A DNA stretch of 64,000 nucleotides from an uncultured Bacteroidales bacterium (lineage in GTDB: Bacteria > Bacteroidota > Bacteroidia > Bacteroidales > VadinHA17): NCBI GenBank assembly GCA_963816365.1, contig CAWFKG010000005.1, forward strand, positions 351,650 to 415,649, written 5' to 3'. A model generated the notes under the pieces. That model ran no database searches, had not been told where the DNA came from, and saw only the letters and a program-made list of their open reading frames with translations. Position numbers and translations under genes: made by a program. Positions 28,085 to 59,406 of the stretch are shown here, in pieces. Numbering within the stretch: position 1 is the stretch's first letter; every line of letters starts with the position of its first letter.

Positions 28085-28091
28085 ACCGAAA

Positions 28092-29012: not shown

Positions 29013-29029
29013 ATTGATAGAAAAGTACA

Positions 29030-29086: not shown

Positions 29087-29128
29087 AAAAAACCAGCAAC
29101 TAGAAACCAGTAACCAGCAACATATTTT

Positions 29129-29293: not shown

Positions 29294-29304
29294 ACAGACC
29301 ATAC

Positions 29305-29874: not shown

Positions 29875-29895
29875 AAAAGAAATCCATTAACCGCA

Positions 29896-29985
29896 GCTGG
29901 CGCCGATTTGTAATCGGTGCCGATTAGGAAAACAAGGAACAATAAACGTATCAGAACCAGGCACGGATTTCAAATCCGCGCCAGC
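29896..29985. repeat. Inverted REP doublet (REPIN-like), family A
   Basis: Minus-strand copy at 29896-29921 and plus-strand copy at 29960-29985. Confidence 0.85.
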
Positions 29986-30008
29986 AATAAGAAACGCAGA
30001 ACAATTTA

Positions 30009-31355
30009 ATGACTCAATTCCAAAAATATAACCGTATTAACCCCCCTTTAGGGACGCAGGGGGGCAAATTCGCTAAGGGGGGCCAATCCCGAAAGAAAAC
30101 CTTACCATATATATTATTTGTACTGCTTTTATGCTGGCACGTGGTTCTCTTTGCCCAGGACAGGTTTCCGAGACCTGAATTTGAATCAGGTCATATCTAT
30201 CCCACCAACCAGATGCCGGTGCCCAGGGCCCAGGTACTGGAGTACCTTGATGTTGTGGTTTTGATCGGTGCGTTGATATTAACCACCTGGCTGGCATTGA
30301 AAAAGCGTTCACGACGGGGCCTGATCTGGATGTCGGTGTTTTCGGTGGCATATTTCGGTTTCTACAGACAAGGCTGTATCTGTTCGGTAGGATCGGTTCA
30401 GAATGTATCACTGGCATTGTTTAATACCGGCTACTCGATTCCGGTTACAGCACTTCTTTTCTTTATTATTCCGCTCCTCTTCGCTCTTGCTTACGGACGT
30501 GTATTTTGCGCGGGAGTTTGTCCGCTTGGTGCCATTCAGGAATTAACCGGTTTAAAGCCCGTCAAACTGCCAAAACCTGTGGAAGTGATCCTTGCATTTG
30601 TACCTTTTATTTATCTCGGGATTGCAATATTGTTTTCAGCCACAAACAGTCAGTTCATGATCTGCAAATATGATCCTTTTGTTGGTATTTTCAGACTTGA
30701 TGCCCCCTATACAATGATAATATTTGGAGCCTTGCTGCTTCTGGCAGGAATATTTGTCAACAGGCCATATTGCAGATATCTGTGTCCTTACGGAGTCCTT
30801 CTCAATATCTTTTCACGGTTTGCAGGGAAACATCTGACAATAACACCAGCTGAATGCACGAATTGCCGGCTTTGTGAGGAAGCATGTCCCTATGATGCCA
30901 TCCTCCCTGCTGATACTGATCAGACCAGGGAAGAACCTGAGAGATCAAGAAAAAGGTTTATTCTCTACTTTATTCTTGTGCCAGTCTTCGCAATCAGCGG
31001 AGCATTTTTACTTTATAACCTCGCTCCTGCCTTGTCAGGTGCAAACAGTACTGTCAGGCTGGCAAGAGAGATCAGAAGTGAGAAAAAAACCGGGCTTGAA
31101 ACAACCCTGAAAGATGTTGTTGCATTCAAAGAATCGGGAAAAACAGAATCCGAGCTATTCAAGGATGAAGAGGTGATAATTAATCGATTCATAAAAGGTT
31201 CACCCTGGGCCGGCGCATTTCTTGGAATTTCATTCGGCCTCGGAATGATCTCACTGACAATTAGAAGTAAGAGAAGTGAATATAAGCCACATCAGGGGAA
31301 GTGTTATAGTTGCGGGAGATGTTTTAAATATTGTCCAATTAAAGTGAAAGTTTAA
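30009..31355 (+). CDS. Integral-membrane 4Fe-4S protein (NapH/MauN/NosR-C-terminal family)
   Basis: FCAGVCPLG and YCRYLCPYG (CX3CP), CTNCRLCEEACP, C-terminal CYSCGRCFKYCP, multiple TM helices. Confidence 0.88.
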   Translation: MTQFQKYNRINPPLGTQGGKFAKGGQSRKKTLPYILFVLLLCWHVVLFAQDRFPRPEFESGHIYPTNQMPVPRAQVLEYLDVVVLIGALILTTWLALKKRSRRGLIWMSVFSVAYFGFYRQGCICSVGSVQNVSLALFNTGYSIPVTALLFFIIPLLFALAYGRVFCAGVCPLGAIQELTGLKPVKLPKPVEVILAFVPFIYLGIAILFSATNSQFMICKYDPFVGIFRLDAPYTMIIFGALLLLAGIFVNRPYCRYLCPYGVLLNIFSRFAGKHLTITPAECTNCRLCEEACPYDAILPADTDQTREEPERSRKRFILYFILVPVFAISGAFLLYNLAPALSGANSTVRLAREIRSEKKTGLETTLKDVVAFKESGKTESELFKDEEVIINRFIKGSPWAGAFLGISFGLGMISLTIRSKRSEYKPHQGKCYSCGRCFKYCPIKVKV

Positions 31356-31356
31356 A

Positions 31357-33052
31357 ATGAAGATTGCTTTAACTGAAAAAGATATCCGGGTTCTGAAAGT
31401 TGTCAGTCAGATTGCAGGAGGATTTGCGCTTATCGTTGCTCTGACCATGATCTTCGCTCTGATCCAGTTAAAAACTGTGAATCCGTTGGATAATCCGGTT
31501 TTGCTTTCGGTGAAGGAGCAGTATGACAAGGACCCGTCAGATGCTGCAAAAGCGGCACAGGTCAGAGCCATGGATCTTATGGCCCGGAAAGCCTATTTCA
31601 GTTCAAGGTGGCAGGTTGAAGCCGGTTCATATCTTCTTATTGCAGGAGTCATTGTATTCATAATATGTCAGAGACTTATTACGGAAAATGAAAAACTCAA
31701 CCCGGTACTCACTGATGCAAAACCCAGCGCCATATTGAATCGCGAGAGGAACAGAAAATATCTCATTTCTACTGTCACCGTAGTTTTTATATTAGCTGTT
31801 GCAGCATCTTTTTATCTTCGTGCGGATCTTCCCGATATATCGGGCAATTCTTCACGAACTGCAAAGAGTGAAGGAGGAGGAGACGATAGAGCTTCTAAAC
31901 CTGATAAAACAAACTGGCCATTTTTCCGCGGACAGGATAGTCGTGGAATTGCAGGCGGTTCAGGTTATCCGACCGAGTGGAATGGAGAATCGGGAAAGAA
32001 TATTGAATGGAAACTGGAGGTGCCCGGAAGAGGAAAGAGCTCTCCTGTTATATGGGGTGATAAGATTTTTATTACAGGTGCGAAGGATAAGGTCTGTGAA
32101 ATATATTGCATCGATAAGAATAACGGGAAAATTTTGTGGACCGGTTCTGCCTCTAATATTCCGGGAGAACCTGCTGTATCTCCAAAGACCGATGCTGAAG
32201 CTGGTCTGGCTGTATCAACAGTAGCTTCAAATGGCAAAGTTGTTTGTGCTGTTTTTGCAAATGGCAACCTGGCCTGCTTTGATTTGGATGGAAAACAGCT
32301 CTGGGCAAAAAATATAGGGGTCCCTGAGACCAGTTACGGTTACTCATCATCCCTGCTCATATATAAAGATATTCTGATTGTCCAATTCGATAGCAATTCC
32401 AAAATATCACTTAATGGATTTGATCTGGGAACCGGTGCATCAGAAATGGGAAACTCTCCGGCAGGGACGTGCAGTATGGTCATCTCCGGTACTCGGGTAT
32501 TTTAACGGCAAAACTCAGGTAATAATAAACGGTAATCCTTCCGTCAGTAGTTATGATCCGGTTACCGGAACCGAACTCTGGGAAATAGAATGTATGAGCG
32601 GTGATGTTGCGCCATCAGTAGCAGTTAACAGCACCCTTGCATATGCTGTAACTGATTATGCAAAGCTTGCAGCAATTAAACCCGGTAATGGAGTCTCAAT
32701 TGCCTGGGAAGACAATACTTATACTCCTGATGTATCGAGCCCGGTTGCTACAGATAAGTTCTTATTCCTGTCAACAGGAAATGGGGACGTTGCCTGCTAC
32801 AATGCATCGAAAGGAGATACAGTCTGGACTCATTATTTCCAGGATCCGTTTTATGCCTCACCTATAATTGCAGATGAAATGGTTTATCTGCTTGACAGAG
32901 CTGGTATCATGCATATAGTCAAAGCAGGAGATAAATTCACTCATATCGGTGATTCTCCTCTTGGTGAAAGCGCCGATTGCTCACCTGCCTTTTCCGACAA
33001 GAAAATTTATATCAGGGGAACGAAAAACCTCTATTGTATTTCGAAGAATTGA
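31357..33052 (+). CDS. PQQ_2-like beta-propeller protein 3 with N-terminal TM helices (frameshift near 32437)
   Basis: Three TM segments, NWPFFRG, SSPVIWGDKIF; continues in ORF 32378-33052 (KWETLR...WSSPV...IYIRG). Confidence 0.85.
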
Positions 33053-35458
33053 AAACAGATAAATCAAAAATATTGTCCGGCACCTGTGAATGCGAAAAGA
33101 TTTCGCAGGCAGATATTACAAATGTAATAGATGAAGTTCTGGCTATTACAGGCACGTGAACCTGAAAAAGTTATATTGATACTCCAGGAGGTTCAGAAAA
33201 GGCTTAACTGGCTACCTTCAGAAGCTCTTAAATATATATGTAAAGTAACTGATATCACACCCGGGCAAATATCGGGAGTTTCTACATTTTATACCCAGTT
33301 CCGTCATCTTCCTGTCGGTGAGCATACAATCAAAATATGCGCAGGAACAGCATGTCATGTAAAAGGCAGTCCGTTGATATCCGATGCGTTTAAAAGAGTT
33401 CTGAAAATTGATGATTCAAAAAATGCTTCTCCAGATAATCTTTTTTCAATTGAGGAAGTAGCCTGCCTTGGCTGCTGTACGCTGGCTCCGGTTGTTCAGA
33501 TTGACGGAAAGACATATGGCCATGTCAAAACAACGCAGGTTGACGAAATAATTTATGATTTTCTGCATCAGGGTAAAATGAGTACTATGATTCAGGAACA
33601 AGAAGCCGGCACAGAGGTAGATGCTGAGATCAGGGTAGGAATCGGTTCATGCTGTGTTGCCGGAGGAAGTAAGGAAATCGTGTCTGAAATTTTTGAAATT
33701 AAACAAAGATATAATCTCAATATCAGATTAAAACAGGTAGGTTGTGTAGGTGTTTGCAATCAGACTCCTTTAATGGAGATAGTTACAAAAGATGAAGTCC
33801 ATTCCAGTTATACAAAAGTATCTAAAGAAAGAGTTGAAGAAATTCTTCTTAAGCATGTACAGCCCAGGGAATTGAATAAAAGGATCAGGTACAAGATAAA
33901 TGATCTTGTTGATACATTCCTGTCTGAAGACAAGCTTACGGGGCAGGTTAATTTACCAGTTGAACAAAGAGAGAAATACCTTGATAACTTCCTGAATCAC
34001 CAGGTTCATCTTGCAACAAAAAACAATGGTATGCTTTCTCCTGAATCCTACAATGAATATTGTTTGTCAGGAGGGTATGATGCATTAAAAAAATGCCTTA
34101 AGGAATCTGACCGGGGATCGATAATTAAAATTATATCAGAGAGTGGCCTTCGAGGTCGCGGAGGTGCAGGATTTCCTACAGGTAAAAAATGGGATATTTC
34201 AGCAAATTCAAACGGTGACACGAAATATGTAGTTTGTAACGGTGACGAAGGTGATCCCGGAGCGTTCATGGACAGAATGCTTCTTGAATCATTTCCTTAC
34301 CGGGTTATAGAAGGAATGGTCATTGCAGGTTATGCGACAGGAGCCAGCGAAGGGATATTTTATATCAGGGCAGAGTATCCGTTAGCTGTAACCAGGGTAA
34401 GGATAGCACTGAAAGCTTGTTATGAAAACGGAATTCTCGGAAAAAATATTTTTGGCACTTCATTTTCATTTGACATTAATATTTTTGAGGGTGCCGGTGC
34501 TTTTGTTTGCGGAGAAGAAACCGCTCTGATCGCATCTCTTGAAGGTAAGCGCGGAACCCCGCATATCCGGCCTCCCTACCCTGCTGTAAAAGGATATAAG
34601 AACAGACCTACGCTCGTTAATAATGTTGAGACCCTTTCACTTGTTCCATGGATAATCAATAATGGTGCAGTTCTATTTGCATCAATCGGCACTGAAAAAA
34701 GCAAGGGGACAAAAGTATTTGCTCTTGCAGGGAAGATTTCAAAAGGTGGTCTGATCGAAGTGCCAATGGGAACAACAATCCGACAAATAGTTGAGAATAT
34801 CGGAGACGGTGTTGCTGATGGTAATACTTTTAAAGCCATTCAGATCGGTGGTCCTTCAGGAGGTTGTATTCCTGCAAGTCATGCTGATATTGCAATTGAT
34901 TATGAGGAACTTACAAGGATGGGTGCGATGATGGGCTCAGGTGGAATGGTAGTCCTCGACAATACCGACTGTATGGTCGACATGGCAAAATACTTCCTTA
35001 CTTTTACTCATAAACAGTCGTGCGGGAAATGTACATTTTGCAGAATTGGTACAAAACAGATGCTCAATATTATTAACGCATTGTCTGAGGGTAAAGCCAC
35101 TTTAGATGATATTAAGGAGCTTGAGAAGTTATGCAAATTCGTTAAGGATGGCAGCTTATGCGGCCTTGGAAAAACATCCCCCAATCCGGTACTTACTGGT
35201 TTGAAATATTTCAGGGAGGAATATGAAGAACATACAAAAGGGATTTGCAGGGCAAACAAATGCCAGGCTCTCATCAAATATCAAATAAATGATGATTGTA
35301 CCGGCTGCACAAAATGTTCGCAGGATTGTCCGGTAAAAGCAATTCCGTTTAAACCTTATGAAAAACATGAGATAGACCAGCTAATATGCACTAAATGTGA
35401 TAACTGTAGAATTGTTTGTCCTGAAAAGGCTATTGAAATAGTAAATATTAATGCTTAG
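33049..35458 (+). CDS. Fused NuoE + thioredoxin-like [2Fe-2S] + NuoF + 2[4Fe-4S] protein (HydC/HydB or BfuC/B-like); frameshift near 33157
   Basis: TTG start overlapping the previous stop; CAGTAC..CLGCC, GSCC..GCVGVC, SGLRGRGGAGFPTG, GDEGDPGAFMDR, GAFVCGEETAL, GGPSGG, SCGKCTFC, CTGCTKC..CP, CTKCDNC..CP. Confidence 0.92.
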
Positions 35459-36551
35459 AATTAAAATAGACAATATTGATTTTGAAGCCGCTGAAGGTTT
35501 AACCATCATGGATGTCGCCAGGGATGCCGGAATACACATCCCTTCCCTGTGCTTTTCAGATAGATTACCACACTATTCTTCATGTATGGTTTGCATGGTA
35601 AAAGATAAAAGAACAGGTAACTTTTTACCCTCGTGTTCTGCGTTGGTACAGGATGGCATGGACATTGAATCTGCCTCTGAAGATGTAATTACTATAAGAA
35701 AAAAATCACTGGAACTTCTACTGTCTGAGCATCGAGCGGAGTGTGAGGCACAATGTAAAGTTGTTTGTCCGGAAGGATATGATATTCCTCTGATGAACAG
35801 GCTTTTAAGTGCTAATGATTTGGATGGTGCCGTCTATCTTTCTATAAGTCAGACAAAATTTTCAATATTAAAATGCTTTGATTGCAAGGGATATTGTGAG
35901 AATGCCTGCCGGAGAAAAAAAGTTGATGCTCCTGTTTCAATCCGCAATATGCAAATGTTTGTCTACGGACAAATCAGTAGGGGCGTTGCATGCAACGCCC
36001 CTCCCGGTGGTCTTGAACAGGGTAATAGTGAGCTCCCAAAACAAAAAGCACCAAAACGTTTTTCATCACGTATTGGCACAATTGAGCAAAATGAACTGAA
36101 AGAATGGCTTAAAGAATGCAAAAATGGCCTTTCCCGTTTCAGGGATATCACAAATATTGAATCTGCTGCCCGGGAGTCTGAGAGTTGCATGCATTGTGAT
36201 TGTCGCGCTGCAGTCGATTGTAAACTGCGACTCCTGGCCGATGAATTAGCTGTTAAAGATCCAAAAGGGAAACTGGTTAATTCTCCTATTCAAAAGAAGA
36301 TAAATATCAATACAGGACTTATCTTTGAGAATGCCAAGTGCATCAAATGCGGTCTTTGTGTCAGACTATGTGAGGAATTAAAAGAAGAACCGGCACTTTG
36401 CTTTATAAACCGGGGATTTGTCAGTATAATCTCAGAGCCACTTACTGAGGACTTTGAAAATATACTGAGGACAAGAAGCAAAGAGGTTGTTGAGATATGC
36501 CCTACGGGGGCTTTAAGTTTGCGAACACCGACTGCTAGCGCGGATTTATAA
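35451..36551 (+). CDS. Fe-S relay subunit (NuoG/HydA N-terminal-like plus GltD-like Fe-S domain), no catalytic domain
   Basis: IPSLC..SCMVCMV..SC [2Fe-2S]; LLSEHRAEC; AQCKVVCP..DIP; YCENACRRKKVDAPVSIR; CMHCDC..DCKL; CIKCGLCVRLC..ICPTGAL. Confidence 0.85.
   Translation: MLRIKIDNIDFEAAEGLTIMDVARDAGIHIPSLCFSDRLPHYSSCMVCMVKDKRTGNFLPSCSALVQDGMDIESASEDVITIRKKSLELLLSEHRAECEAQCKVVCPEGYDIPLMNRLLSANDLDGAVYLSISQTKFSILKCFDCKGYCENACRRKKVDAPVSIRNMQMFVYGQISRGVACNAPPGGLEQGNSELPKQKAPKRFSSRIGTIEQNELKEWLKECKNGLSRFRDITNIESAARESESCMHCDCRAAVDCKLRLLADELAVKDPKGKLVNSPIQKKININTGLIFENAKCIKCGLCVRLCEELKEEPALCFINRGFVSIISEPLTEDFENILRTRSKEVVEICPTGALSLRTPTASADL
35977..36002 (+). repeat. GTAG-type REP palindrome inside a CDS
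   Basis: GT followed by the perfect 24-bp palindrome AGGGGCGTTGCATGCAACGCCCCT. Confidence 0.75.
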
Positions 36552-36606
36552 TGCGTGCTAGCATATATTAGTTTTATATAAGCACGGATTACAAATCCGC
36601 GCCAGC
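36534..36606. repeat. Inverted REP doublet, family A
   Basis: Degenerate minus copy at 36534-36559 (contains the TAA stop of the 35451 gene) and plus copy at 36581-36606. Confidence 0.8.
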
Positions 36607-36619
36607 AAACGAATTATTT

Positions 36620-37726
36620 ATGAAATTCATTCTTACAGGCATATTAAGTTTTCTCTTATACGTTTCTGTTTCCGGTCAATCAGCAGACTGGCCATTATTC
36701 AGAGGCAAGGCAGATCTGGCAGGAAAGACAGAATCGGAATTTCCTCTGTCACCCAGGCTTCTGTGGAGCATTAAAACAGGTGCAACGACGAAATCTTCGC
36801 CGGTTATTAGTGAAGGAACCGTTTATTATGGAAATGATAAAGGGTCTCTTATAGCGGTCAGTTCCGACGGAAAGATAAAGTGGAAATATGAAGCTGGAAG
36901 TTCAATAGATGCCGCACCAATGGTATTTGGAAATAAAGTGGTATTTGGAAACAGCGATGGAATTCTGAGAGCAATTGACAAATTCTCAGGCAAATTAATA
37001 TGGTCATATACTACTGATAATCAGATTGCCGGCTCCGCAAATGTATGGACTGAAGGCGACAGGTCAGGAATTGTAACAGGAAGCTATGATTATTATCTTC
37101 ATTGTGTAGATCCTCACACGGGCAAATCTCTCTGGAAGGTCGAGACTGAAAACTATATAAACGGAACCCCTGCAATACTGAACGGAAAAATAGTGTTCGG
37201 AGGCTGTGACGGGATGTTAAGAGTTGTGGATCCTCTGACGGGCAAGGAAAATGATACCATTAATATAGGAGTATATATTGCATCCTCTCCTGCCCTCTCA
37301 GGCAGTCTGGCGTACTTCGGGGATTATGACGGTACAATATATTGTGTTAACATCAAGACCAGGAAGATCATCTGGAAGATACAGGGAACCGGAGAAGGAG
37401 GCTCAATAATGTCAATTCCAGCAATCGGAAATAATTCCGTTGTAATAGGCAGTGAGGATAGATATCTTTATTGTTATAACTCTGCCGATGGTAAGTTGTT
37501 ATGGAAATTTCGAACAAACGGAAGAATAGTCGGATCTGCTGTAATATCATCAACTCAGGTTCTCTTTACAGGAATGGATGGGTTCATCTATATATTAAGG
37601 CTGTCCGACGGGAAAAAGCTTTGGAGCTTCAATGCAGGTACCCCTGTAAGCAGCTCTCCGGCGGTGGTTGACGGAAAGTTTTATATTCTGACAGAGGATG
37701 GCAGATTAATGGCATTTGGGAATTAA
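36620..37726 (+). CDS. PQQ_2/BamB-like beta-propeller protein 4 (secreted, regular blades)
   Basis: Signal peptide, DWPLFRG, repeated SSPxI...G..DG...GK..W. Confidence 0.9.
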   Translation: MKFILTGILSFLLYVSVSGQSADWPLFRGKADLAGKTESEFPLSPRLLWSIKTGATTKSSPVISEGTVYYGNDKGSLIAVSSDGKIKWKYEAGSSIDAAPMVFGNKVVFGNSDGILRAIDKFSGKLIWSYTTDNQIAGSANVWTEGDRSGIVTGSYDYYLHCVDPHTGKSLWKVETENYINGTPAILNGKIVFGGCDGMLRVVDPLTGKENDTINIGVYIASSPALSGSLAYFGDYDGTIYCVNIKTRKIIWKIQGTGEGGSIMSIPAIGNNSVVIGSEDRYLYCYNSADGKLLWKFRTNGRIVGSAVISSTQVLFTGMDGFIYILRLSDGKKLWSFNAGTPVSSSPAVVDGKFYILTEDGRLMAFGN

Positions 37727-43314: not shown

Positions 43315-44673
43315 TCACTTTTTCCCCACCCCGACAAGATACTTCTGAGTTCTGAAAATAATCATGCCATCTGTAATTGCCGGAGCAGTCATACAGGTGT
43401 CATTCATAGGTATTTCAGCCAGAAGCTTAAAACTTTCACCGTCCTGTAAAACATATATTGTTCCCGCCTCATCTACAACATATATTTTACCGTCTGAGGC
43501 GACAGGAGAAGCGATAAAGCTGTTTGCCTTACCAAGCTTTGCATTATAGATCTCTTTTCCGGTAAGTGGGTCGAGACAAATAATGGTCCCATTCCAGTTT
43601 ACATTATAGAGGTGATTCTTATACAGCAGCAAGGTATGCATATACGAACCACCCCTGGGCAGGCTCCATTTTATATATTCATTGGATGTTTCTGTTTCTT
43701 TCAGGGTAATATCTCCGACAGCATTTGTCTTAACCGCTATTATAGGTGAATATCGCCCGTGTGCGCTATTAAAGTATATCAGGTCATTTCCTACAATTGG
43801 CGTCGGTATCTGTATATCTCCGCCACCTGACATTTTCCAGACTTCTTTTCCTGTTTCAAAATCATATCCGCCTCTGTTTTTATATCCATTAAGTGCAACA
43901 TAGGTCTTGCCGGCGTTTGTATAGATATTCGGAGTACACCATCCGGGATACTCATCACGTTGCGTTTTCCAGAGCTCTTTTCCTGTTTTAACGTTGTAGG
44001 CAGCAACAAAAGAGTTCTCAAGAACATCGCACTGGACGATCAGCACACCTTTATATATAACAGGAGAACTGGCAAATTCCCATTCTGCAGATTTTACTGC
44101 AAAGAAAACGGACCGCAGCAGTCCGAAGTTTTTCTGCCATACAAGATTGCCTTTCATGTCATAGCAAAAAAGGCCTTCAGACCCAAAAAAAGCAACGACG
44201 TACTTTCCATCAGTGGCGACTGAGGTGTTTGCATGGGTTGATTTTGGATGACGTTTCATCCTGGGTATTCCTTTAAATGAGGTTCTCTCCCAAAGGGTCT
44301 TCCCGGTATTTTTATCAATGCAAAATACTTTCCATTCGTGCACAGATGAGTCTTTTACCGGAGTAATGTCGCCATAAATACCGGGCTTGAATCCTGCTTT
44401 ATCAGCCTGACCGATAGCACTTGTTATGAATATTTTATTATCCCATATCACCGGGCTGGATAGTCCGAGACCAGGTATTTCCCTCTTCCACCTTACGTTG
44501 ATCATGTTGAGTATGTCGAAGGATTCGGGAAGGTTTGCATTATCGAGAACGCCGGAAGAGAAATTCCCTCGATAAGAGGTCCATTGCCTGTCAGGATTAA
44601 CCTGACCGGATGTCTCAATGACCGAAAAACCTATAAATGAAAATAATAGTACAAATGCCAGGTACTTTTTCAT
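43315..44673 (-). CDS. PQQ_2-like beta-propeller protein 5
   Basis: Signal peptide, QWTSYRG, IPGLGLSSPVIW, TPNIY, APAITDGMIIFRTQKYL. Confidence 0.88.
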   Translation of the reverse strand: MKKYLAFVLLFSFIGFSVIETSGQVNPDRQWTSYRGNFSSGVLDNANLPESFDILNMINVRWKREIPGLGLSSPVIWDNKIFITSAIGQADKAGFKPGIYGDITPVKDSSVHEWKVFCIDKNTGKTLWERTSFKGIPRMKRHPKSTHANTSVATDGKYVVAFFGSEGLFCYDMKGNLVWQKNFGLLRSVFFAVKSAEWEFASSPVIYKGVLIVQCDVLENSFVAAYNVKTGKELWKTQRDEYPGWCTPNIYTNAGKTYVALNGYKNRGGYDFETGKEVWKMSGGGDIQIPTPIVGNDLIYFNSAHGRYSPIIAVKTNAVGDITLKETETSNEYIKWSLPRGGSYMHTLLLYKNHLYNVNWNGTIICLDPLTGKEIYNAKLGKANSFIASPVASDGKIYVVDEAGTIYVLQDGESFKLLAEIPMNDTCMTAPAITDGMIIFRTQKYLVGVGKK

Positions 44674-44675
44674 GA

Positions 44676-46037
44676 TTAATTATTTTTTCCTACGGCGAAA
44701 AGATATTTCTGAGTTCGGAAGAATATCATACCATCAGTAATCGCCGGAGCTGTTAAGCATACGTCATTCAGAGGTATCTCAGCGAGTTTCTTAAAGGTTG
44801 AACCATCCTTAATAATATAAACTGTTCCATGTTCGTCAACAATGTACAGTTTTCCATCTGATGCTACCGGCGAAGCGATGAAGCTTTGCGCATTTCCTAA
44901 TTTTGCATTATAAATCACATGACCGGTCCCTGCATCGAAACAAACAATAGTACCGTTCCAGTTGACATTATAAAGATGATCACGGTAGAGAAGTAAAGAA
45001 TGGATGTAGGATCCTCCACGCGGAATACTCCATTTAACATATTCATTGAGAATGCCTGTCGGTTTTAGAGTAATATCGCCGGAAGCATTGGTTTTAATAG
45101 CATAAATAGGTGAAGAAGGCCCATGCGCACTGTTAAAGTAGATCAGGTTCTTCCCCACAATCGGCGTAGGAATTGGAACATCGCCCCCACCTGACATCCG
45201 CCAGATTTCTGTTCCAGTCTCAAAGTCATATCCGCCTCGATGTTTGTAGCCGTTAACAGCTATACGTGTTTTATCTCCGTCCTTATAAATGTTTGGTGTA
45301 CACCATCCAGGATATTCATCTCTGCTTGTTTTCCACAATTCCTTCCCTGTCCTGAGATCATAAGCTGCTATAAAGGAATTTTCCAGTACATCGCACTGTA
45401 TGATAAGAACGCCATTATATATTATTGGAGAGCTTGCGAACTCCCATTCAGCGGCAACGTAATCAAATGCAACAGATTTAAGAATACCGAAATTCTTTTT
45501 CCAGATTAGATTACCCTTATGATCATAACAATATAAACCCTCAGATCCGAAAAAAGCAACAGCATAACTGCCATCAGTTGCTATTGATGCATTGGCATGA
45601 GTCGATTTCGGATGTCGTCTGATTTTAGGAATTCCTGTATATGCTACCCTTTCCCAAATTGTTTTACCGGAATTTTTATCGATACAGAAGACTTTCCAGT
45701 CATGAACTGAGCTGTCCTGAACCGGCATACCATCTCCGTAAATGCCAGTCTTTATTCCCTGTTTATCTGATTTACTGACTGCACTGGTAATAAATAATTT
45801 ATTGCCCCAGATTACAGGGCTCGACAAGCCCAGCCCAGGTATCGTGATTTTCCATCTTACATTAATCGTTTTTTGAATGTCAAATGAATCAGGAAGGTTT
45901 GCATTATCAAGGACACCTGATGCCATATATCCCCGAAATCCGGGCCATTGTCGTTCAGATAATATTTGTCCGTCGATATTTACTGTAAGAGTTAATAATA
46001 CAATAATCAGTCCGGAAGACAGAAGATTTAATCTCAT
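44676..46037 (-). CDS. PQQ_2-like beta-propeller protein 6 (tandem paralog of 43315)
   Basis: QWPGFRG, IPGLGLSSPVIW; long blocks identical to the neighbouring gene. Confidence 0.88.
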   Translation of the reverse strand: MRLNLLSSGLIIVLLTLTVNIDGQILSERQWPGFRGYMASGVLDNANLPDSFDIQKTINVRWKITIPGLGLSSPVIWGNKLFITSAVSKSDKQGIKTGIYGDGMPVQDSSVHDWKVFCIDKNSGKTIWERVAYTGIPKIRRHPKSTHANASIATDGSYAVAFFGSEGLYCYDHKGNLIWKKNFGILKSVAFDYVAAEWEFASSPIIYNGVLIIQCDVLENSFIAAYDLRTGKELWKTSRDEYPGWCTPNIYKDGDKTRIAVNGYKHRGGYDFETGTEIWRMSGGGDVPIPTPIVGKNLIYFNSAHGPSSPIYAIKTNASGDITLKPTGILNEYVKWSIPRGGSYIHSLLLYRDHLYNVNWNGTIVCFDAGTGHVIYNAKLGNAQSFIASPVASDGKLYIVDEHGTVYIIKDGSTFKKLAEIPLNDVCLTAPAITDGMIFFRTQKYLFAVGKNN

Positions 46038-47463: not shown

Positions 47464-47625
47464 AAGCTGTATTTAGTATTAGGGAGAAGAAAATATTAAC
47501 CTCAAAAATAATCTAAATGTGCTTTATGACAGCATCGTATTGAAATAAATTAATTATTATTGAAAATTGAAGAATTCTCTTTTGGGATTTGTGGAAATCA
47601 GAAAATTTTATGTTATTGTTCTAAT

Positions 47626-49573
47626 ATGAAAGTCACCGGAAGGCATATTCTTAATCTATTAATAATCTTTGGGTTTGGACTGGTTTCAGCTTTGATATGC
47701 CAATCATTCACTGAAAAACCAACCAGCCGCCATATTCATATAAGAAGTTTCCGGTATGGAAAGGATCCGTATGTAATAAAATGCAACAGAGGGTGATACG
47801 CTAATTCTGACCTTTTCAACTGATGACACCGGGCATTCATTTTTTCTTCAGGAATTTGATAAAGATGTTAAGATCACTCCCTCCAGTGATGAAGTAGCAG
47901 TTTTTAAGACAAGTGATCCTTCTGCTCAACCTCTTCTTGAAAAAGAAGTTACAATTGTAGCCAGGCATCCTGGTATCAGTAATTATATAGTATCGAAAAG
48001 CAATTACCGCTGTCATGTATGGTGTGGTCCCATGCATGCTTTTGAACAGGGCAAGCTAATAATATTACCCAATACTTTGCTTGTCTTCAGTCTGGGCAGT
48101 CTCTTCGGAATATTATTTATCTGGCTTGTATCTGTTTTCAGAAATGCAGTTCCGGAAATAAGCAGCAATGATGAGAAAGCCGGCTACAAAGATCTGCTAA
48201 AAAAATCAGGCTTTTTAAAAGGTGTTGCAACATCAAGATATACACAGGCAACGCTTACCATTATTACTATGGTAATGATTTATATCGTAATTCTGACATC
48301 GGTTTTTGGTACCAAAGTGTCAGGCAGAAACCTCGGGGTGCTTTTAATGTGGGCGGTCTGGTTATTTGCCCTGGTAGCAATTATTACTCCATTTTTTGGA
48401 AGATTCTGGTGTACGATCTGTCCTCTGCCTTTTTTCGGAGATCTGATTCAGCGTAAATCATTCTTTAATCCTCTGAAAGGAAAAACAAGAAGCTATAACA
48501 ATAAATTTTCAGGCCTCTTTCTCAAATGGCCCGATTGGTTAAAAAATGACTGGCTTAGATTGCTGGTCTTTCTGGTGCTTGCAACTTTTTCCACGACACT
48601 TGTTGCAACTCCATTTATATCGGGCATCACAGTGCTGATGCTAATGATTGTACCCACGATAATGTCGGGGATCTGGGAACTAAGAGCATTCTGCCGGTAC
48701 GTATGTCCGGTGAGTGTTTTTGTTGCGCCTTTTTCGAGGGTGAGTACTTTATCTCTCCGTAATAAATCACAGGAAGTATGCAATCAGTGCAAACCGCATT
48801 ATTGCGAGAATGGGAATACAAACGGATGGGCATGCCCTTATGGATTGAATGTCGGTGAGATTAAAGAAAATACGGATTGCGGCCTGTGTCTCGAATGTAT
48901 ACGAAGCTGCTCATATAATAATGTCTCACTTTTTGCACGACCCTTTGCATCTGAGATGGGAACGCGTAATCTGAGTGAGGCATGGATGTCAATGGCAACG
49001 TTTACAATATCAATCATTTATAGTATATTGTATCTTGGCCCCTGGCCCGTGGTTCGCGATTATGTGAATATCCTTGACAAGCATAACTGGGGTCTATTCG
49101 GAATATATTCACTGTTAATGTGGACCTCAGTATTGATCATTATTCCAGGAATTATTTATTTTCTGTCCCGGCTTGGCCTCCTCATGGCAGGAATTAAAGT
49201 TGGTGCAAAGGATTTATTTCTGGAATATGCCGGATCTCTTCTTCCTTTTGCCATGATGAACTGGATAGCTTTTGTGATACCGATGCTCTTTGTCAATGTC
49301 ACTTTCATAAAGCAATCAATATCTGATCCTTTTGGCTGGGGATGGGATTTCTTTGGTACGGCTAATACTCCCTGGCATCAGTTCCTGCCGCAGTTTGTTC
49401 CATGGTTTCAGGCATTTGCAGTACTAATTGGATTATACCTTAGCTTAAGGAATATAAGAAGGTCCGGAAAATTTTTGGATTTGAATCAGGCTCAGGTTTT
49501 AAAGGTAAGCTTACCAATCAGTCTGTTTCTATCAGGAGCGGCAGCAGCAATGCTGTTCTTCTTTACAAATTAA
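47626..49573 (+). CDS. CuA-like cupredoxin domain fused to a polytopic 4Fe-4S membrane protein (frameshift near 47792)
   Basis: Removing one G at 47791-47793 joins MKVTGRH...PYVIKCNR to GDTLILTFSTDDTGHSFF...YRCHVWCGPMHAFEQG, which is open into ORF 48032 (WCTICP, FCRYVCP, CNQC..C..CP..CGLCLECIRSC). Confidence 0.82.
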
Positions 49574-49950: not shown

Positions 49951-50628
49951 TTAGAATTTGATTTTATAATTTACCGATATAATGTTAATATCGGAGAGAT
50001 GAGGCTGATAATCCCTCTGAAAAATATACTCCGTCTCAATTGAATGTCGTTTTGTAATTCTTAATTCCATTCCTGCAGCTAACCTGTTTTTACCTACCGT
50101 TCCGGATTTCTCCGAAAACATAGGCATGAAAGTTTCAATGTATACATAAGGATCAATAGGGAAAGTGGGGGTCTTATAGATGGCTTTTAATTTTATTATG
50201 CCGGTATAATCAGGGTAGTTATCGTTATTGTCCTTAATATAAGTCTTCATCCTTGTCTGAAATCTAAAGCGGCTTGAAAAACTAAAATTCCCGACCGGAA
50301 GGATTCCTTTTACATCAAAAAACAGCTTGTGCTGGAAGAAGTACCTATTGTTATCCTCCAGATTTTTATTAAGCCGGTACGACGCAGCTATTGTAAGGTA
50401 CTTTCTGATGCTGTATCCCACTCCGCCTTCGAGAAAACCCTCTTCAATTTTAGTCGCATTATTAAATGTCCGGATATCAGTGGAAAGATTGATTTCCAGT
50501 TTTTTGGATAATTTATGTTCCACTGAAATCCCATACCAGATCCCAAAATCTTTTTTCTGGGATGAAGCAACCAGTGGAATAAAAAAAGAAAGCAGAATAA
50601 CAAATAGTTTTCTAATCATCATCGTCAT
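49951..50628 (-). CDS. DUF2490-like outer-membrane beta-barrel protein
   Basis: Signal peptide, DFGIW, alternating beta strands, RFRFQ, PYVYIETF, C-terminal YKIKF; start approximate. Confidence 0.72.
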   Translation of the reverse strand: MTMMIRKLFVILLSFFIPLVASSQKKDFGIWYGISVEHKLSKKLEINLSTDIRTFNNATKIEEGFLEGGVGYSIRKYLTIAASYRLNKNLEDNNRYFFQHKLFFDVKGILPVGNFSFSSRFRFQTRMKTYIKDNNDNYPDYTGIIKLKAIYKTPTFPIDPYVYIETFMPMFSEKSGTVGKNRLAAGMELRITKRHSIETEYIFQRDYQPHLSDINIISVNYKIKF

Positions 50629-51319
50629 CGTCTCTGGCATTTTTATTATTGTCATTCAGGCCGATAGTATTTACCATGGGACCGCTCACATCGTAAAAGA
50701 TCTGAAGGGTACATGTATCTTTCAGGAAATCAATTTTACCTATCTCGACCCTTTTGATTGTCTTAATTCCAGTGCGATCCTGCAGGTCATTCAGCAATTC
50801 CTGATTGTTTTCCGGCTTGATAAGCTCAATTTTTTCATAGATAATGATTTTTGATAATTCATGCTTCTGCAGCCATATTTTCTCCATACAAAAAGTGATG
50901 GCAATTATCACAAAGTTTGTAAAAAGGACCTCCGCAACGCTGGTCTTGGTGTCAGCAAGTGCGTTTATGATTGAGACTCCGATTATCAGAAACAAGTAGG
51001 TCATCTCTTTTATGGGAATTGAACTTGTCCTGTAGCGTATTATACCGAAGATTGCGAACAGACCTAGTGCAAATCCTATCTGAAGCTTTACACTCGCCAG
51101 AAGATAACATAAACTGAAGATAAGGCAGGAGATCAGAATATAGGTAAAGAGATAATCTTTACGTTTAGTTGTTGAGTAGTACAACCATCTCACCAGGATC
51201 AAGACCACAGCCATGTTCAGGGCAAATCGTCCCAGGAGTTCAAGAAAACTCGGGATATCTATAATTTCTATACCTGCAAAATTTATCTTGTCAGGGTCGA
51301 GCAGATCTAGTGTATTCAT
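50612..51319 (-). CDS. DUF4956 family membrane protein
   Basis: GFALGLFAIFGIIRYRTSSIPIKEMTYLF signature; downstream of the VTC gene. Confidence 0.88.
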   Translation of the reverse strand: MNTLDLLDPDKINFAGIEIIDIPSFLELLGRFALNMAVVLILVRWLYYSTTKRKDYLFTYILISCLIFSLCYLLASVKLQIGFALGLFAIFGIIRYRTSSIPIKEMTYLFLIIGVSIINALADTKTSVAEVLFTNFVIIAITFCMEKIWLQKHELSKIIIYEKIELIKPENNQELLNDLQDRTGIKTIKRVEIGKIDFLKDTCTLQIFYDVSGPMVNTIGLNDNNKNARDDDDDD

Positions 51320-52074
51320 TTTCAATCTTATTTATTAAAAGCAAATCAGGCTTTAAGATGTTCTTCCGGGGCATATCCCTTATAAGTGTGCTGCCGATGC
51401 AATATTTGCTGAAACTGCAAGGCTGAATACCAGCTTCCCGCATGATCTTATATACAGGTGTTTGACAATTATGAATTTCTCTTTTTAATTCAGCAATTGC
51501 TAAAAAGGGTAATCGGGAATTATTGCCTTCCGGGCTAGTGAAACTCAGGTTGTAATCAAGTGTGATCCGCTCCTTAGCCTCCAGTCCGACCAGTGTGATC
51601 CTGGTGAATTCATTGATCAGTACAGGCATTAGACCTGTCAAACTGTAATTTAGATATTCTCTTATAAATGCTGATGCATTCCGGTCAGGTGAATTGGAAC
51701 TTAATTTGTTTTCAATGCGCCATTTAATGGTTCTGTGCTTGTTGGTCCTTTTTTTTATCTCAAGAAATGAAACACCGGTCGATTCATACCATCTGTATCT
51801 GATTTTGTACCTGTTAAGCTTACCTCTTACCTGCTGGTTGTAAAATAAAAGCTCAGGGGTGTCAAGGTAGGTGGTATAATAAGGAAAAGCCCTCAGATGT
51901 ACCAATGTCAAGTACCTTATAGTTTTCTGATAAACGATTAAGTAAAACAGCCAGTTTCATAGTTGAAAATACATATTTTGTCTCAATCCTGTTCATTAAG
52001 ATAACCCCTTCCATTTCACTTAAGCCAATTGGCCTAAAAGAGCTCAAAACCGTTTGAATATCAGAACTGTACAT
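51291..52074 (-). CDS. VTC (polyphosphate polymerase) domain protein, frameshift near 51905
   Basis: LMNRIETKY; YLDTPEL..Y; RYKIRYRWY; FLEIKKR; ERITLD; ELK; FSKYC. Confidence 0.88.
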
Positions 52075-54478: not shown

Positions 54479-56101
54479 ATGGAAAGAAGAAGAACGCCAT
54501 CTCACCGGATCAGGTACTTTGTAAGGAACAGTAATTCATCGTTTCACCCCAAACATTTGTCATACAAATGGTTCCTTCTTGCAAATGTTATGCTTGGAAC
54601 CTTTATGGCAGTTCTTGACGCTACTATTGTAAATGTAGGGCTGCCGAAAATCATGGCATCATTCGGTGTAGGGCTCGATAAAATTGAATGGGTCGTTACA
54701 GCATATATGCTTGCGATGGCGGTCGCACTTCCTACTTCCGGCTGGCTCGCTGATAAATTTGGTTACAAGCGTTTATACTTCATCGGATTATTCCTTTTCA
54801 CGTTAGGATCAATGTTATGCGGAAGGTCATCGGATGAAAACATGTTAATCGCTTCGAGAGTCATTCAGGGTCTTGGAGCCGGGACAATACAACCGCTCGG
54901 CATGGCAATTATTTCAAGGGAATTTCCTCCGCATCAGAGGGGAATAGCTCTTGGATTCTGGGGTATTTCTGCTGCAGCATCAGTCTCATTCGGACCAATA
55001 ATAGGAGGTTTTCTGATAGACCGTTTCAGCTGGCCGCTGATTTTTGATGTGAATATACCGATTGGGATATTAGCAATGCTGTTTACAATTATCATTCAGA
55101 GTGAATACATAAACAGAAGTACAAGAAAATTTGATCTTGCCGGATTCATCTCAGTCACTATATTTTTGCCTCTTACGCTCTATGTTCTTTCCCAGGGCAA
55201 TGCAGCTACAAATTCTGCAGGATGGCATGCCCCTTTTATATTGGCTTTCGGTGCTATTGCCTTAATTGCGTTTGCTGTTTTTATAACTGCAGAATTAACA
55301 GCAAAGGAACCTCTTCTCGATCTGAGGCTCTTAAATAATCATAATTTCGGTATAGCTAATATTATCCTGTTAATCTTCAGTCTCGGCATGTTTGGAAGTA
55401 CATTCCTTTTACCAATTTACCTTCAGAATTCTTTGGGCTATACGGCTCTGCAGGCAGGTTCAGTTTTTCTGCCAGTAGGTATCATACAGGGAACAATTGC
55501 ACCTATCTCAGGCAGGATATCCGATAAACTGAATCCAAAACTTCCTCTGTTTATAGGTGTGGTACTTTTTGCCTTTAGCTTCTGGCTCAACTCAAAATTG
55601 TCATGGCTCACCGAGCTTCATTTCATTATGTTGTCATTATATTTGAGGGGAGTGGCTATGGGCCTGATGTTCACTGCTCTGACAACAGTTTCTCTGTCTG
55701 AGATACCTCGCGAAAAGATGGCTCAGGCATCAGCGATAACAAACTCCATCAGGCAGCTTGGCGGAAGTCTGGGAGTGGCCCTACTTGCCACTTTATTGAC
55801 CACCAGGGTCAATTTTCATGCACAGGTATTTGGCGGCGCAGTCAAACCCGGTTCTGAAATCTATAAACAGACAACGGCTAAAATAAAATATTATTTACAG
55901 GATGAAGCCGGTAGTTCACCAGCCATTTCGACGATGCAAAGTCAGGCTTTGCTTCTTTCAAATCTTAGTAAACAAGCTTATATACAAGGTATTGACGACG
56001 ATTTTCTTCTTGCAGGCATTATAACCCTTATAGGAGGTATCCCGATAATATTCCTGCATACAAAAAAATTAAAAAATAAAAATCTTCCTGCACATGAATA
56101 A
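54479..56101 (+). CDS. DHA2 family MFS efflux permease (EmrB/QacA)
   Basis: GTFMAVLDATIVNVGLP, WVVTAYMLA, GWLADKFG, RVIQGLGAG, RQLGGSLGVA. Confidence 0.93.
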   Translation: MERRRTPSHRIRYFVRNSNSSFHPKHLSYKWFLLANVMLGTFMAVLDATIVNVGLPKIMASFGVGLDKIEWVVTAYMLAMAVALPTSGWLADKFGYKRLYFIGLFLFTLGSMLCGRSSDENMLIASRVIQGLGAGTIQPLGMAIISREFPPHQRGIALGFWGISAAASVSFGPIIGGFLIDRFSWPLIFDVNIPIGILAMLFTIIIQSEYINRSTRKFDLAGFISVTIFLPLTLYVLSQGNAATNSAGWHAPFILAFGAIALIAFAVFITAELTAKEPLLDLRLLNNHNFGIANIILLIFSLGMFGSTFLLPIYLQNSLGYTALQAGSVFLPVGIIQGTIAPISGRISDKLNPKLPLFIGVVLFAFSFWLNSKLSWLTELHFIMLSLYLRGVAMGLMFTALTTVSLSEIPREKMAQASAITNSIRQLGGSLGVALLATLLTTRVNFHAQVFGGAVKPGSEIYKQTTAKIKYYLQDEAGSSPAISTMQSQALLLSNLSKQAYIQGIDDDFLLAGIITLIGGIPIIFLHTKKLKNKNLPAHE

Positions 56102-57435
56102 TCAAATTAGCAAAAAATCAATTTTTCTCATCTTCGCACTGGTCATAATCTTTAACAGCACTTTTTTTGGACAAAATGCCTCTGATAAAGACAAAATCTC
56201 TGGTGATTCATTATCGCTTAAGAGTGTCATTCAACAAGTTATCTCCTCTTATCCTACAGTCAAGGTTGCGGAAGAGGCTATAAGGAATGCGGATTCTAAA
56301 ATTGCATTAGCGAAGACAGGTTATAATCCTGTTGTTGATTTGGAAGCCAGCTTTGCTGACCTTGCTCCGGTTACAAAGCTTTCTTTTCCCGACCTTGGAA
56401 CTTTTCAGCTTTACCCCCAATACAACTATTCCGCTTCACTTAATTTGAATCAGCTTGTTATATGATTTTGGCAGAACCCACCAGAATGTGGCACTTGAAA
56501 ATGAAAACAAAGCAATTGGCGAACAGAGCCTTGAGCAGGTAAAACAGAAGTTGTCTCTTTATACTGTAAATAATTTTTATGCTCTGCTTTTTCTACAGGC
56601 TGCTATAAAAATTAAGGATGAACAGCTTGCAACACTCAATGAGCATCTTCAGTATATTGAAAAAGTTCTGGCTACAGGTTCCGCTACTGAGTACCAGGTT
56701 CTTTCAACAAAAGTCAGGATTTCAACTGTTGAGAGTCAGAAAGTCGATCTGGAGGCTTCGCTTAAGTCGCAACAGGCAACTCTTAACTCGTTGCTGGGTA
56801 AAGACCAGGTGAATATTCCTGTTGTAAGAAACGATATCGGTATCGAGCCTCCTGTAATTCCTTCCGATTCAGTCCTATCCTTTGCATATCGTAACCGTGA
56901 CGAGGTAAAATTAAATCAAAAGAGAACAACACTTGCCGAGCTGAGATTTGGAATGACAAAGTTGCAGAATAAACCGTTTTTAAACCTTGAAGCATCTGGT
57001 GGAGCTAAAAACGGATATATCCCTGATCTGGCTAGATTTACTCCGAACTATGTGGTAGGAATAGGACTCAGAGTACCAATATTTGATGGGATGAAAAATA
57101 AGTACAACGTTGCCCAGGCACAATCAGCAATATCTTCGTTAACATTTGAATCGGATCTTACAAAAAGAAATATCTCAAATGAGGTTTATGAATCAGAGGC
57201 ATTAATGTTCGCAGCACAAAAGAAAGTCAGCCAGTCAGAGCTTCAAATGCAGCAGGCTTTGAAAGCGTATTCGCTGGCTGAGACCAGCTTTAAATCAGGA
57301 ATGATAACAAACCTCGATCTGCTGGACGCAAATACTTCCGTGTCGGAAAGCAGTTTAATGCTGCTTAAAGCAAGAATAGATTATGCTGCAAGCATTTATA
57401 AACTGAAAGCTGCGCTTGGTCAAAGGATTTATTAG
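56094..57435 (+). CDS. TolC family outer-membrane efflux protein (frameshift near 56460)
   Basis: LKSVIQQVISSYP..., LNQLV/YDFGR, GLRVPIFDG, FKSGMITNLDLLDA. Confidence 0.88.
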
Positions 57436-57976: not shown

Positions 57977-59331
57977 TCAGATTTTACATCTGGTGAGTCC
58001 AAGGTTCAGGGAAGACTTTGAACCTGAGACAACCAGGGCTGCTCCAAGAGCTGATCCATTTGCAATTTCAGACGTGTATACAAATTTCGAGGGAAACGCT
58101 TTTGTGATCAGATTCAGGAAGAGATCATTGCCTGAAAAACCACCGGTTATGTAAATGTTTTCAGTATCATCATTTGCAGGAAGAACAAGATTGATTGCTT
58201 CTAATAACAGATCGCCTAATTCATTCATTAACTGATGATAAGCTTCCTCAAAAGTGTTGAACTCATACATATCTATATATTCTTTCAGCTCACGGGAATA
58301 TGGACCTGTCTGAAAGAAAATTTTTTTATCTCCATATTTCTGCTTTAATGAAGCTCGACAACTGATCGTCGGCTTTGATTTTTTTATAGTAATCATCTGG
58401 TTTTCTGAAATGATCACATACCTGTTTTAGTGCAGTTTCGTGCATATGGCCAATAAACAGCCTTGAAGATTTTACCGGCTGCCTGGTTATACTCATATAA
58501 CAGAGGCAATCTTTATCAAGCTGATCTGCTGTTAATTTTTCCTTATTAAAAGGATTCATATTAATGCACCATGTTCCGGTGGATATCAGGAAAAACGTAC
58601 CCTGACTGCCAGTGAAATATGGAGCAAGTGAGGCAGAACTATCGTGAATTCCGATTCCGACCTGAATTTTTTTCCCGCCGATTTCAACTTCATTTAATAG
58701 TATCAACAGGCACAGGATCAGGCAGGTTCAATCCATAGATTTTGGTCCAGGGATGATAATTCATATTATCAAAATCCCACATAGCGGTATGACATCCGAT
58801 GGAAGTGTGTTCGGAGTATATCTTTCCTGTTACCAGGTATGAGAGATATTGTGGAAAATGAAGGATATGTTTTATTTTAGAATTGACATCCGGCCGTGTT
58901 GCTTTAAGCCAGAGAGGCTGGATCCCGGAATTAAGCATACCGAGGGCTGGCGAAGCTGTCCGCCTGCAAAACTCATCTCGTCCACCGTATCTCTTGTACA
59001 GACTTTCAGAGATCTTTTCTTCGATAGGTTTGAGATAATTATAAAGAGGAGTAAGTCTTTTGCCGTTCTCATCGAGATAGACCAGTGTAGCACCATAAGT
59101 TGTAAAGTTAACAGCCTTTAGGTCATACACGTCTGAATGGACCAGGCTGGTCAGCGAATCCTTTATCCAACTCTCAATATGTTCAATATCATCACATTCA
59201 AAGCCGTCATCATCCAGAATTTCAGCAAATTTTTCCTCAATTTCTGAAACAATCCTGAAGTCTTCATTAAAGAGAATTATCTTTTTATTCGTTTTACCAA
59301 TATCATAAATAGCAATAACTGTCTCTTTCAT
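57977..59331 (-). CDS. FGGY-family sugar kinase, probable rhamnulokinase (frameshifted into 3 pieces)
   Basis: IYDIGKTNKK, GIHDSSASL, ISTGTW, ITGGFSGN, SALGAA; located within the rha cluster. Confidence 0.8.
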
Positions 59332-59406
59332 TTTACCCCCCAACCCCCCCGAAGGAGGGCTTTAGAATATTCTTATCAATTTAGTTTTTTACTTTGTATG
59401 AATTAA

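Follow-up and report, generated by a model that had tools for sequence, protein, structure and literature searches.

A predicted CuA-type cupredoxin domain with an axial glutamate fused to a NapH-like membrane polyferredoxin in Bacteroidales and other bacteria

The CuA sites of COX2 and NosZ follow the ligand pattern H...C-x3-C-x3-H-x2-M, and to our knowledge all known CuA sites have an axial methionine. Engineered variants of CuA-azurin and of the Thermus CuA domain, in which this Met was changed to Glu, Gln or Leu, tolerate Glu. NapH-like membrane polyferredoxins, of which CX3CP motifs are the hallmark, are as far as we know the least understood inner-membrane electron route, and the described ones carry an outward flavin domain. 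CcoG/FixG is a cupric reductase for cbb3 oxidase assembly. Here we describe a gene from an uncultured Bacteroidales bacterium that is predicted to combine a CuA-type cupredoxin domain and a NapH-like polyferredoxin in one chain, with Glu at the axial position. It lies in a stretch of 64,000 nucleotides (contig CAWFKG010000005.1 of assembly GCA_963816365.1), the whole of which is called the window below. Proteins of the family PF12801 (Fer4_5) have been described as modular links from membrane or cytosolic electron pools to extracytosolic reductases or oxidases, most of them with an N-terminal outward FMN-binding domain (PMC8238504). Cupredoxins go unmentioned in that paper's main text, and its three text supplements (5,406 characters) contain neither PF13473, PF00116 and PF13517 nor cupredoxin; its large cluster table might list such proteins. 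Literature searches covering titles and abstract openings returned nothing on a cupredoxin-polyferredoxin fusion or a natural Glu-CuA site, and the engineered axial variants were not recovered in them.

The gene, which is split by one base in the assembly (see below), encodes in its restored form a 648-aa protein (P0003), whose N-terminal domain is predicted by fold and profile homology to be a CuA-type cupredoxin. An AlphaFold2 model of this domain (71 sequences) had a pLDDT of 95 and a pTM of 0.87. Foldseek comparison with the PDB placed the Thermus ba3 CuA domain at the top (2qpe_B/2cua_A, E 5e-7 to 9e-7, TM 0.66), followed by engineered CuA domains, NosZ and a Bacillus anthracis Cupredoxin_1 protein. 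A profile of the 71 domain sequences matched the ba3 CuA constructs in the PDB with E-values of 1.3e-22 to 1.7e-18 and NosZ with 7e-13; in this alignment the His/Cys/Cys/His residues of the family fall on ba3 His114, Cys149, Cys153 and His157, and its Met/Glu column coincides with Met160. Single-sequence matches were non-significant; the case for homology is carried by the family profile together with the fold. A reading of the window made earlier from its letters (the sequence-only reading) had proposed a CuA-like cupredoxin here, and the fold and profile searches bear it out. It had further suggested a binuclear centre of altered potential, and such a CuA-type copper centre may be present in the fusion protein. 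A Rieske-like 2Fe-2S cluster, which the two Cys and two His could also call to mind, was set aside because the fold and the loop spacing match CuA.

An exhaustive search with aa 30-149 of a relative (P0004, 98% identical) as the query yielded 156 representative clusters at E <= 0.001. Most relatives with 30-46% identity are proteins of 140-210 aa in which a helix stands on either side of the domain; these Met-type sequences exceed the Pfam cut-offs for COX2 and/or Cupredoxin_1. Four longer proteins (P0188, P0189, P0228 and P0248, 640-820 aa) carry the COX2/Cupredoxin_1 families together with Fer4_5. In the ESM Atlas, the clusters are unnamed or called '4Fe-4S binding', and Fer4_5 and COX2 are found in 83% and 13% of members, respectively.

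The putative ligand loop lies between the last two strands of the domain and has the His...Cys-x3-Cys-x3-His spacing of CuA. The codons of H70 (47834), C129 (48011), C133 (48023), H137 (48035), E140 (48044) and Q141 (48047) stand exactly where the sequence-only reading had put H, C, C and H followed by Glu and Gln. At His+3, where the axial methionine is a defining feature of CuA, the window protein has Glu140 instead. The H...C-x3-C-x3-H pattern with Glu at the Met position, which had been read from a single sequence, proved to be general among its close relatives: H70, C129, H130, C133, H137, E140 and Q141 are invariant in 24 of 24, and the Glu together with His70, Cys129 and Cys133 is kept in all 66 loci with a readable Cys-bearing, non-Met motif, which represent three phyla.

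Typing of the ligand loop in the 150 listed representative clusters of the domain search gave a canonical C-x3-C-x3-H-x2-M loop in 82 and a C-x3-C-x3-H-x2-E loop in 24, the latter nearly always as R-C-H-V-[WY]-C-G-P-M-H-A-F-E. The axial residue is Val in one cluster, and another 37 are fragments or unrelated. Six clusters (P0150, P0152, P0153, P0155, P0159 and P0270; loop R-N-H-T-Y-N-G-P-[LM]-H-G-T-E-R-G) have Asn for both Cys and Gln for His70, with H130, H137 and E140 kept. The sequence-only reading had named homologues without the H/C/C/H ligands as evidence against it; such evidence exists in part, since in these six clusters the first His and both Cys are gone.

Domain matches at 48% identity or higher are all of the Glu type, whereas those below 46% are nearly all of the Met type. 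A tree of 75 full-length proteins separates four Met-type proteins from 71 with the Glu position at 100% SH-aLRT, and two changes on it suffice to explain the three axial/ligand states. Relative to their Met-type relatives, members of the Glu clade have a 7-residue insertion ahead of the ligand loop. His at Cys+1 and Glu at His+3 co-occur, and do so solely in the Glu clade; the exception is P0205, a Met-type-like protein with Glu alone. Thus, the clade-wide conservation and the tree argue that Glu-for-Met is no quirk of the window sequence; it is an old, fixed feature of a clade that spans Bacteroidota, Planctomycetota and Calditrichota.

The membrane part of the protein was recognised by Pfam as Fer4_5 (27.4 bits with a cut-off of 22, in two stretches), the sole Pfam family in the window protein; the FMN-binding family of the NosR/PceC subtype gave no Pfam match, and the CcoG/FixG model TIGR02745 was not among the NCBIfam matches listed. 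Judged by its motifs, this part is NapH-like and stands outside the curated NapH, NosR and CcoG models. In an alignment of 16 full-length proteins with identities down to 27%, C262, C265, P266, C356, C360 and P361 of the CX3CP motifs are invariant, as are C385, C393, C403, C418, C421, C424 and C428; C388 is the only non-invariant ferredoxin cysteine and is replaced in P0228 and P0248. The C-terminal domain shows S566, D567 and P568 invariant and the remainder of SDPFGWGW near-invariant.

Hydropathy analysis located transmembrane helices at about 11-29, 152-170, 210-228, 236-254, 313-342 (two helices), 452-470, 502-520, 538-556 and 627-645, and an extra helix near 590-612 was read from the sequence by eye. 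Loops rich in Lys and Arg lie on the side that bears the CX3CP motifs and the ferredoxin domain. Because of this hydropathy pattern and the positive-inside rule, the cupredoxin domain and the SDPFGWGW loop are predicted to lie outside and the Fe-S clusters in the cytoplasm, in agreement with the accepted NapH/NosR topology. The earlier proposal of a cupredoxin fused in one chain to a membrane polyferredoxin, with the Fe-S cysteines on the predicted cytoplasmic side, is upheld by the Fer4_5 match, the invariant cysteines and the Lys/Arg distribution.

Relatives were sought in one genome per species with SDPFGWGW as the search pattern, which revealed at least 577 species genomes from several phyla. 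Gene neighbours were counted in the best 80 of these loci, which come from Bacteroidales, Prolixibacteraceae, Planctomycetota, Calditrichota, Neomarinimicrobiota, Acidobacteriota and others, and include an intact orthologue from the cultured strain Prolixibacter bellariivorans ATCC BAA-1284 (L047). A gene for an FG-GAP protein adjoins the fusion gene in 65 of the 80 loci, either divergently upstream, as in the window, or immediately after it in the same direction (gaps of ~30-70 bp or short overlaps). An FG-GAP open reading frame (ORF) of at least 250 aa was found in 57 of 66 Glu-type loci versus none of five Met-type loci, and several of the Glu-type loci that lack one are contig ends or have fragmented ORFs. 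A membrane-anchored TPR protein of about 600 aa is encoded near the fusion gene in 40 of the 80 loci, an Omp85-like gene often stands upstream of it in Prolixibacteraceae, and PQQ_2 propeller genes beside the FG-GAP gene (16-17 of 80) are lineage-specific. This large cross-phylum family and its conserved FG-GAP and TPR partner genes had been overlooked in the sequence-only reading. Its remark that no oxidase or N2O reductase lies nearby was correct: none was found among the Pfam-surveyed proteins of the window, and the only COX2 above the cut-off in the genome is located about 240 kb away on the same contig.

The FG-GAP protein of the window matched FG-GAP_3 in Pfam (3e-41), and its AlphaFold2 model (pLDDT 86) is a seven-bladed propeller on an N-terminal helix, with CRTAC1, aldos-2-ulose dehydratase, fungal lectins and integrins as the nearest folds. 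There was no NCBIfam family for it, and a PDB sequence search returned no match at E <= 0.01. Its 36 orthologues keep H146, H339, H418, H441, D203, E274/W275/E276 and Y224/D225/D226, residues that blade periodicity and a reading of the repeats assign to top-face loops and inner strands, suggesting a binding or catalytic face. Complex prediction for the propeller (aa 70-465) and the cupredoxin domain gave a score of 0.00, which counts neither way. Two sequences from the domain search, P0159 and P0193, start as cupredoxin domain and finish in FG-GAP-like sequence; wrong ORF calls or misassembly probably account for them, and they hint that the FG-GAP gene may be adjacent in the ligand-less subgroup, too.

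Table 1. Features of the fusion gene and its immediate surroundings, in window coordinates
Feature	Position	Strand	Basis or remark
Two PQQ_2 (BamB-like) beta-propeller genes	43315..46037	-	lineage-specific neighbours
Membrane-anchored seven-bladed FG-GAP/VCBS beta-propeller gene, 465 aa	46066..47463	-	conserved partner
Intergenic region between the divergent FG-GAP and fusion genes	47464..47625	.	
5' part of the fusion gene, frame A, M1-G56: anchor (about aa 11-29) and first cupredoxin strands	47626..47793	+	
CuA-type cupredoxin domain, predicted extracytoplasmic, aa 30-149, across the frameshift	47713..48073	+	model, fold, profile
Frameshift site, GGG then T	47791..47794	+	one surplus base relative to every related contig
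Remainder of the fusion gene, frame B, D57-N648 plus stop	47795..49573	+	
His70, aligned with His114 of Thermus ba3 subunit II, the first histidine of CuA	47834..47836	+	alignment, profile
Ligand loop C129-H-V-W-C133-G-P-M-H137-A-F-E140	48011..48046	+	Glu at the axial Met position
Second transmembrane helix, aa 152-170, back to the cytoplasm	48080..48136	+	hydropathy
NapH/NosR-like polyferredoxin core, aa 206-440: four transmembrane helices, two CX3CP motifs, ferredoxin-like domain	48242..48946	+	
CX3CP motif 1, C262-T-I-C265-P266	48410..48424	+	
CX3CP motif 2, C356-R-Y-V-C360-P361	48692..48709	+	
Eight Cys for two predicted [4Fe-4S] clusters: C385, C388, C393, C403, C418, C421, C424, C428	48779..48910	+	
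C-terminal domain, about five transmembrane helices, aa 450-648	48974..49573	+	family-specific
SDPFGWGW motif, loop predicted extracytoplasmic	49322..49345	+	

Compared with the CuA domain of Thermus thermophilus ba3 oxidase (PDB 2cua/1ehk) and the C-terminal CuA domain of NosZ, the fusion domain shares the cupredoxin fold, profile homology and ligand spacing. It differs in the axial Glu, the His after the first Cys and the helices on both flanks, and the fusion protein is no part of an oxidase or N2O reductase. In engineered CuA sites Glu is a laboratory mutation, whereas in the fusion family it is a natural, fixed state of a clade from three phyla. With NosR, PceC, NapH and MauN the protein shares the Fer4_5 core, two CX3CP motifs and two ferredoxin-type Cys clusters, to which the fusion family adds the five-helix C-terminal domain with SDPFGWGW. 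Linkage to extracytoplasmic partner proteins is a further point in common, as is an outward N-terminal redox domain carried on one anchor, which in NosR and PceC binds FMN but in the fusion family is a cupredoxin. CcoG/FixG is likewise a Fer4_5-type membrane Fe-S protein connected with copper; however, CcoG has no cupredoxin domain, and the fusion locus has no cbb3 context.

From these comparisons we favour, with moderate confidence, a transmembrane electron conduit of the NapH/NosR type, in which a CuA-type centre replaces the flavinylated FMN domain and serves the propeller partner. The 648-aa product would be an inner-membrane redox protein, intact in nature, that works in the manner of NosR/PceC-type NapH-like conduits. 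Electrons would move between a cytoplasmic or membrane pool (the Fe-S clusters, possibly quinol) and the copper centre on the outer face, and this centre would in turn serve extracytoplasmic partners, which in the Glu clade would be the adjoining membrane-anchored FG-GAP propeller and, usually, the TPR protein. The topology, the copper binding, the direction and purpose of electron flow and the partner roles in this scheme are what we infer, whereas the frameshift with its likely artefactual origin, the fold and homology of the domain, the conserved ligands with Glu in place of Met, the order of domains and the gene linkage are shown by the data. A bolder version takes the fusion protein, the FG-GAP protein and the TPR protein for an unrecognised envelope redox system, where a Glu-ligated CuA would feed a new catalytic metal site on the top face of the propeller (candidate residues H146, D203, H339, H418, H441, E274 and W275). 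We regard it as improbable; if true, it would follow the logic of NosR plus NosZ (polyferredoxin, CuA, propeller), with the parts distributed differently.

Several results weigh against the proposed conduit. The sequence-only reading had suggested an HMM search of the corrected protein for COX2, Cupredoxin_1 and Fer4_5; the last was found above its cut-off, but Pfam gave no cupredoxin family for the window protein at E <= 0.1. The best hit in a single-sequence PDB search, Thermus ba3 subunit II at the first CuA histidine, was non-significant (E 0.64). The best NCBIfam match, TIGR02163 (NapH/MauN), reached 28.9 bits, far under its cut-off of 213. No cofactor able to bridge the membrane is evident in the sequence of the fusion protein, and no redox cofactor motif is recognisable in the FG-GAP protein, which resembles lectins, integrins, CRTAC1 and a dehydratase in its fold. 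In addition, one of the ligand-less proteins (P0155) is full-length at 651 aa, with Gln at His70 and Asn at both Cys, and the existence of the Asn/Asn subgroup means that the domain can persist without the CuA ligand set.

This ligand-less subgroup is also the main argument for other readings of the domain. It keeps exactly H130, H137 and E140, as would be expected if the Glu-clade domain were a structural docking module for the FG-GAP and TPR proteins, or a mononuclear site made of these three residues, with the Cys as relics in most members. The paired occurrence of His at Cys+1 and Glu at His+3, restricted to the Glu clade apart from P0205, and the coincidence of the Met-to-Glu change with the FG-GAP linkage fit such a role as well. 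We nevertheless consider it unlikely, given that the strict conservation of His70, Cys129 and Cys133 described above argues for selection on the full CuA set and that engineered CuA sites tolerate an axial Glu. Still less likely, in our judgement, is that the protein handles copper rather than passing electrons to a partner, in the way of a periplasm-facing analogue of CcoG: its Fe-S clusters would reduce Cu(II) at a labile outward Cys/His/Glu site, and the reduced copper would go to cuproenzyme maturation or detoxification. CcoG/FixG, too, belongs to Fer4_5, and CcoG is the best NCBIfam match of the Prolixibacter orthologue (21.7 bits with a cut-off of 316.7). Glu and the invariant His130 beside Cys129 could make the site harder and possibly more exchangeable, and Met-type loci contain a YtkA-like gene (L083) and a Metal_resist gene (L091). 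On the other hand, it is electron-transfer CuA sites that have this fold and this ligand spacing, the Glu-type gene has FG-GAP and TPR neighbours instead of a conserved copper transporter or chaperone, and the Cys-less subgroup would be unable to bind Cu(I) in this manner.

In the assembly the gene is split between two frames. Frame A runs from the ATG at 47626 to a TGA at 47794-47796 and encodes 56 residues (MKVTGRH...KCNRG), namely a hydrophobic anchor and then SFRYGKDPYVIKCNRG. The called ORF (48032-49573) sits in frame B. This frame had been given as open from 47795, which is true, although its actual upstream limit is 47780. Skipping one base at the GGG/T run 47791-47794 yields the continuous 648-aa protein, which ends at 49573 and has full-length relatives, so that the single extra G postulated earlier between the N-terminal transmembrane segment and frame B is confirmed. 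The automatic gene call begins at M136 (48032) and gives a product of 513 aa (P0114), which lacks 135 residues because of the indel in the assembly. A database search with P0003 produced 973 matches among 8,000 scored candidates. Among the 120 matches listed, nearly all are proteins of 645-660 aa with 100% coverage of P0003 and 72-98% identity, named 'polyferredoxin' or '4Fe-4S binding protein [Bacteroidales bacterium]' at source; the truncated P0114 (79% coverage) is the odd one out. Programmed frameshifting was ruled out, since the relatives carry no shift at this site.

The region 47500-48300 was compared with contigs of four peat-metagenome runs (X1-X4). Every contig spanning 47790/47791 in all four runs has one base fewer. 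In X1, X2 and X3 the depth that carries the deletion is identical to the total depth, and in X4 the depths of such contigs add up to the total. In the syntenic stretch at 38.2-60.7 kb, 16 genes were checked against intact relatives, and frame breaks turned up in four of them. The fusion gene, the VTC-domain gene (near 51900) and the outer-membrane efflux gene (near 56386-56474) have one shift each, and the FGGY kinase gene has two (near 58694 and near 58348), which makes five in all. Since the base is missing from the related contigs and four of 16 genes are broken, the extra G at 47791-47794 is most likely an assembly indel. The domain that the sequence-only reading had called hidden is, accordingly, hidden by an assembly artefact and not by any biological feature. 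It could also be supposed that the window copy is a genuine pseudogene, recently inactivated in the source strain: the extra G does stand in the assembly as given, and the best sequencing run contains only 0.24 of the sampled words, with no run reaching half. This is very unlikely in our view, as one of the base-lacking contigs has just two other differences over 109 bases, both halves of the gene are still open and 98% identical to intact relatives, and similar breaks in nearby genes are typical of indel-prone assemblies.

The source genome is a metagenome-assembled genome of 18 contigs and 4.84 Mb. Among the sequencing runs listed for words sampled from the sequence, none was an RNA run. The intervals of the other split genes that were checked against intact relatives are 51300-52074 (VTC-domain), 56094-57435 (outer-membrane efflux) and 57977-59343 (FGGY kinase). 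Elsewhere in the window, a sigma-54 regulator/kinase, an FtsX permease and a PQQ_2 gene look fragmented by Pfam (15552-18107, 18255-20731 and 31357-33052). The split genes across the window suggest an indel-prone assembly.

If the predictions hold, at least 577 species genomes from several phyla carry a NapH-like scaffold with a copper-type centre in place of a flavin. The CuA/COX2 cupredoxin superfamily and the NapH-like polyferredoxins were known already; new is their cross-phylum fusion with an axial Glu. Hundreds of copies stand in the databases under generic names, and both the fusion and a natural Glu-CuA site appear to be new. The family offers a natural axial series of a CuA-type site (Met, Glu and ligand-less), so natural proteins can be used to test how the axial ligand tunes CuA, and within this series the Met-to-Glu switch coincides with the gain of a new partner protein. 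The soluble domain is small, and the intact Prolixibacter orthologue is available in a cultured strain.

The Met-type loci contain split cupredoxin and polyferredoxin genes, a CuA-cytochrome c fusion, plastocyanin-like proteins and a sigma-54 two-component pair, and by their gene content they are plainly periplasmic electron-transfer sets. Separate genes for a ~190-aa cupredoxin and a polyferredoxin are found at L083:6973-11276, L088:7105-11223 and L091:5130-9053, flanked by genes for a plastocyanin-like/CarboxypepD_reg protein and a CuA-cupredoxin-cytochrome c fusion, with the sigma-54 two-component pair close by. The Planctomycetota locus L089:16-9365 encodes a molybdopterin oxidoreductase, a 4Fe-4S subunit, a Nar-delta-like chaperone and an EB_dh haem subunit fused to a COX2-type cupredoxin, followed by polyferredoxin, cupredoxin and polyferredoxin genes.

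Downstream of the fusion gene in the window, a trio of DUF2490, DUF4956 and VTC-domain genes (49951-52074, minus strand) represents polyphosphate-related families; it is probably unrelated to the fusion gene because it is conserved in just 5-6 of the 80 loci. A second NapH-like polyferredoxin is encoded at 30009-31355 (Fer4_5, 58.5 bits) within a same-strand cluster at 25242-37726. This cluster also contains several PQQ_2 propellers, a small ferredoxin (29305-29874), a NuoE/NuoF-like fusion (33131-35458) and a NuoG-like Fe-S protein (35451-36551), and looks like another cytoplasm-to-periplasm electron route with propeller partners.

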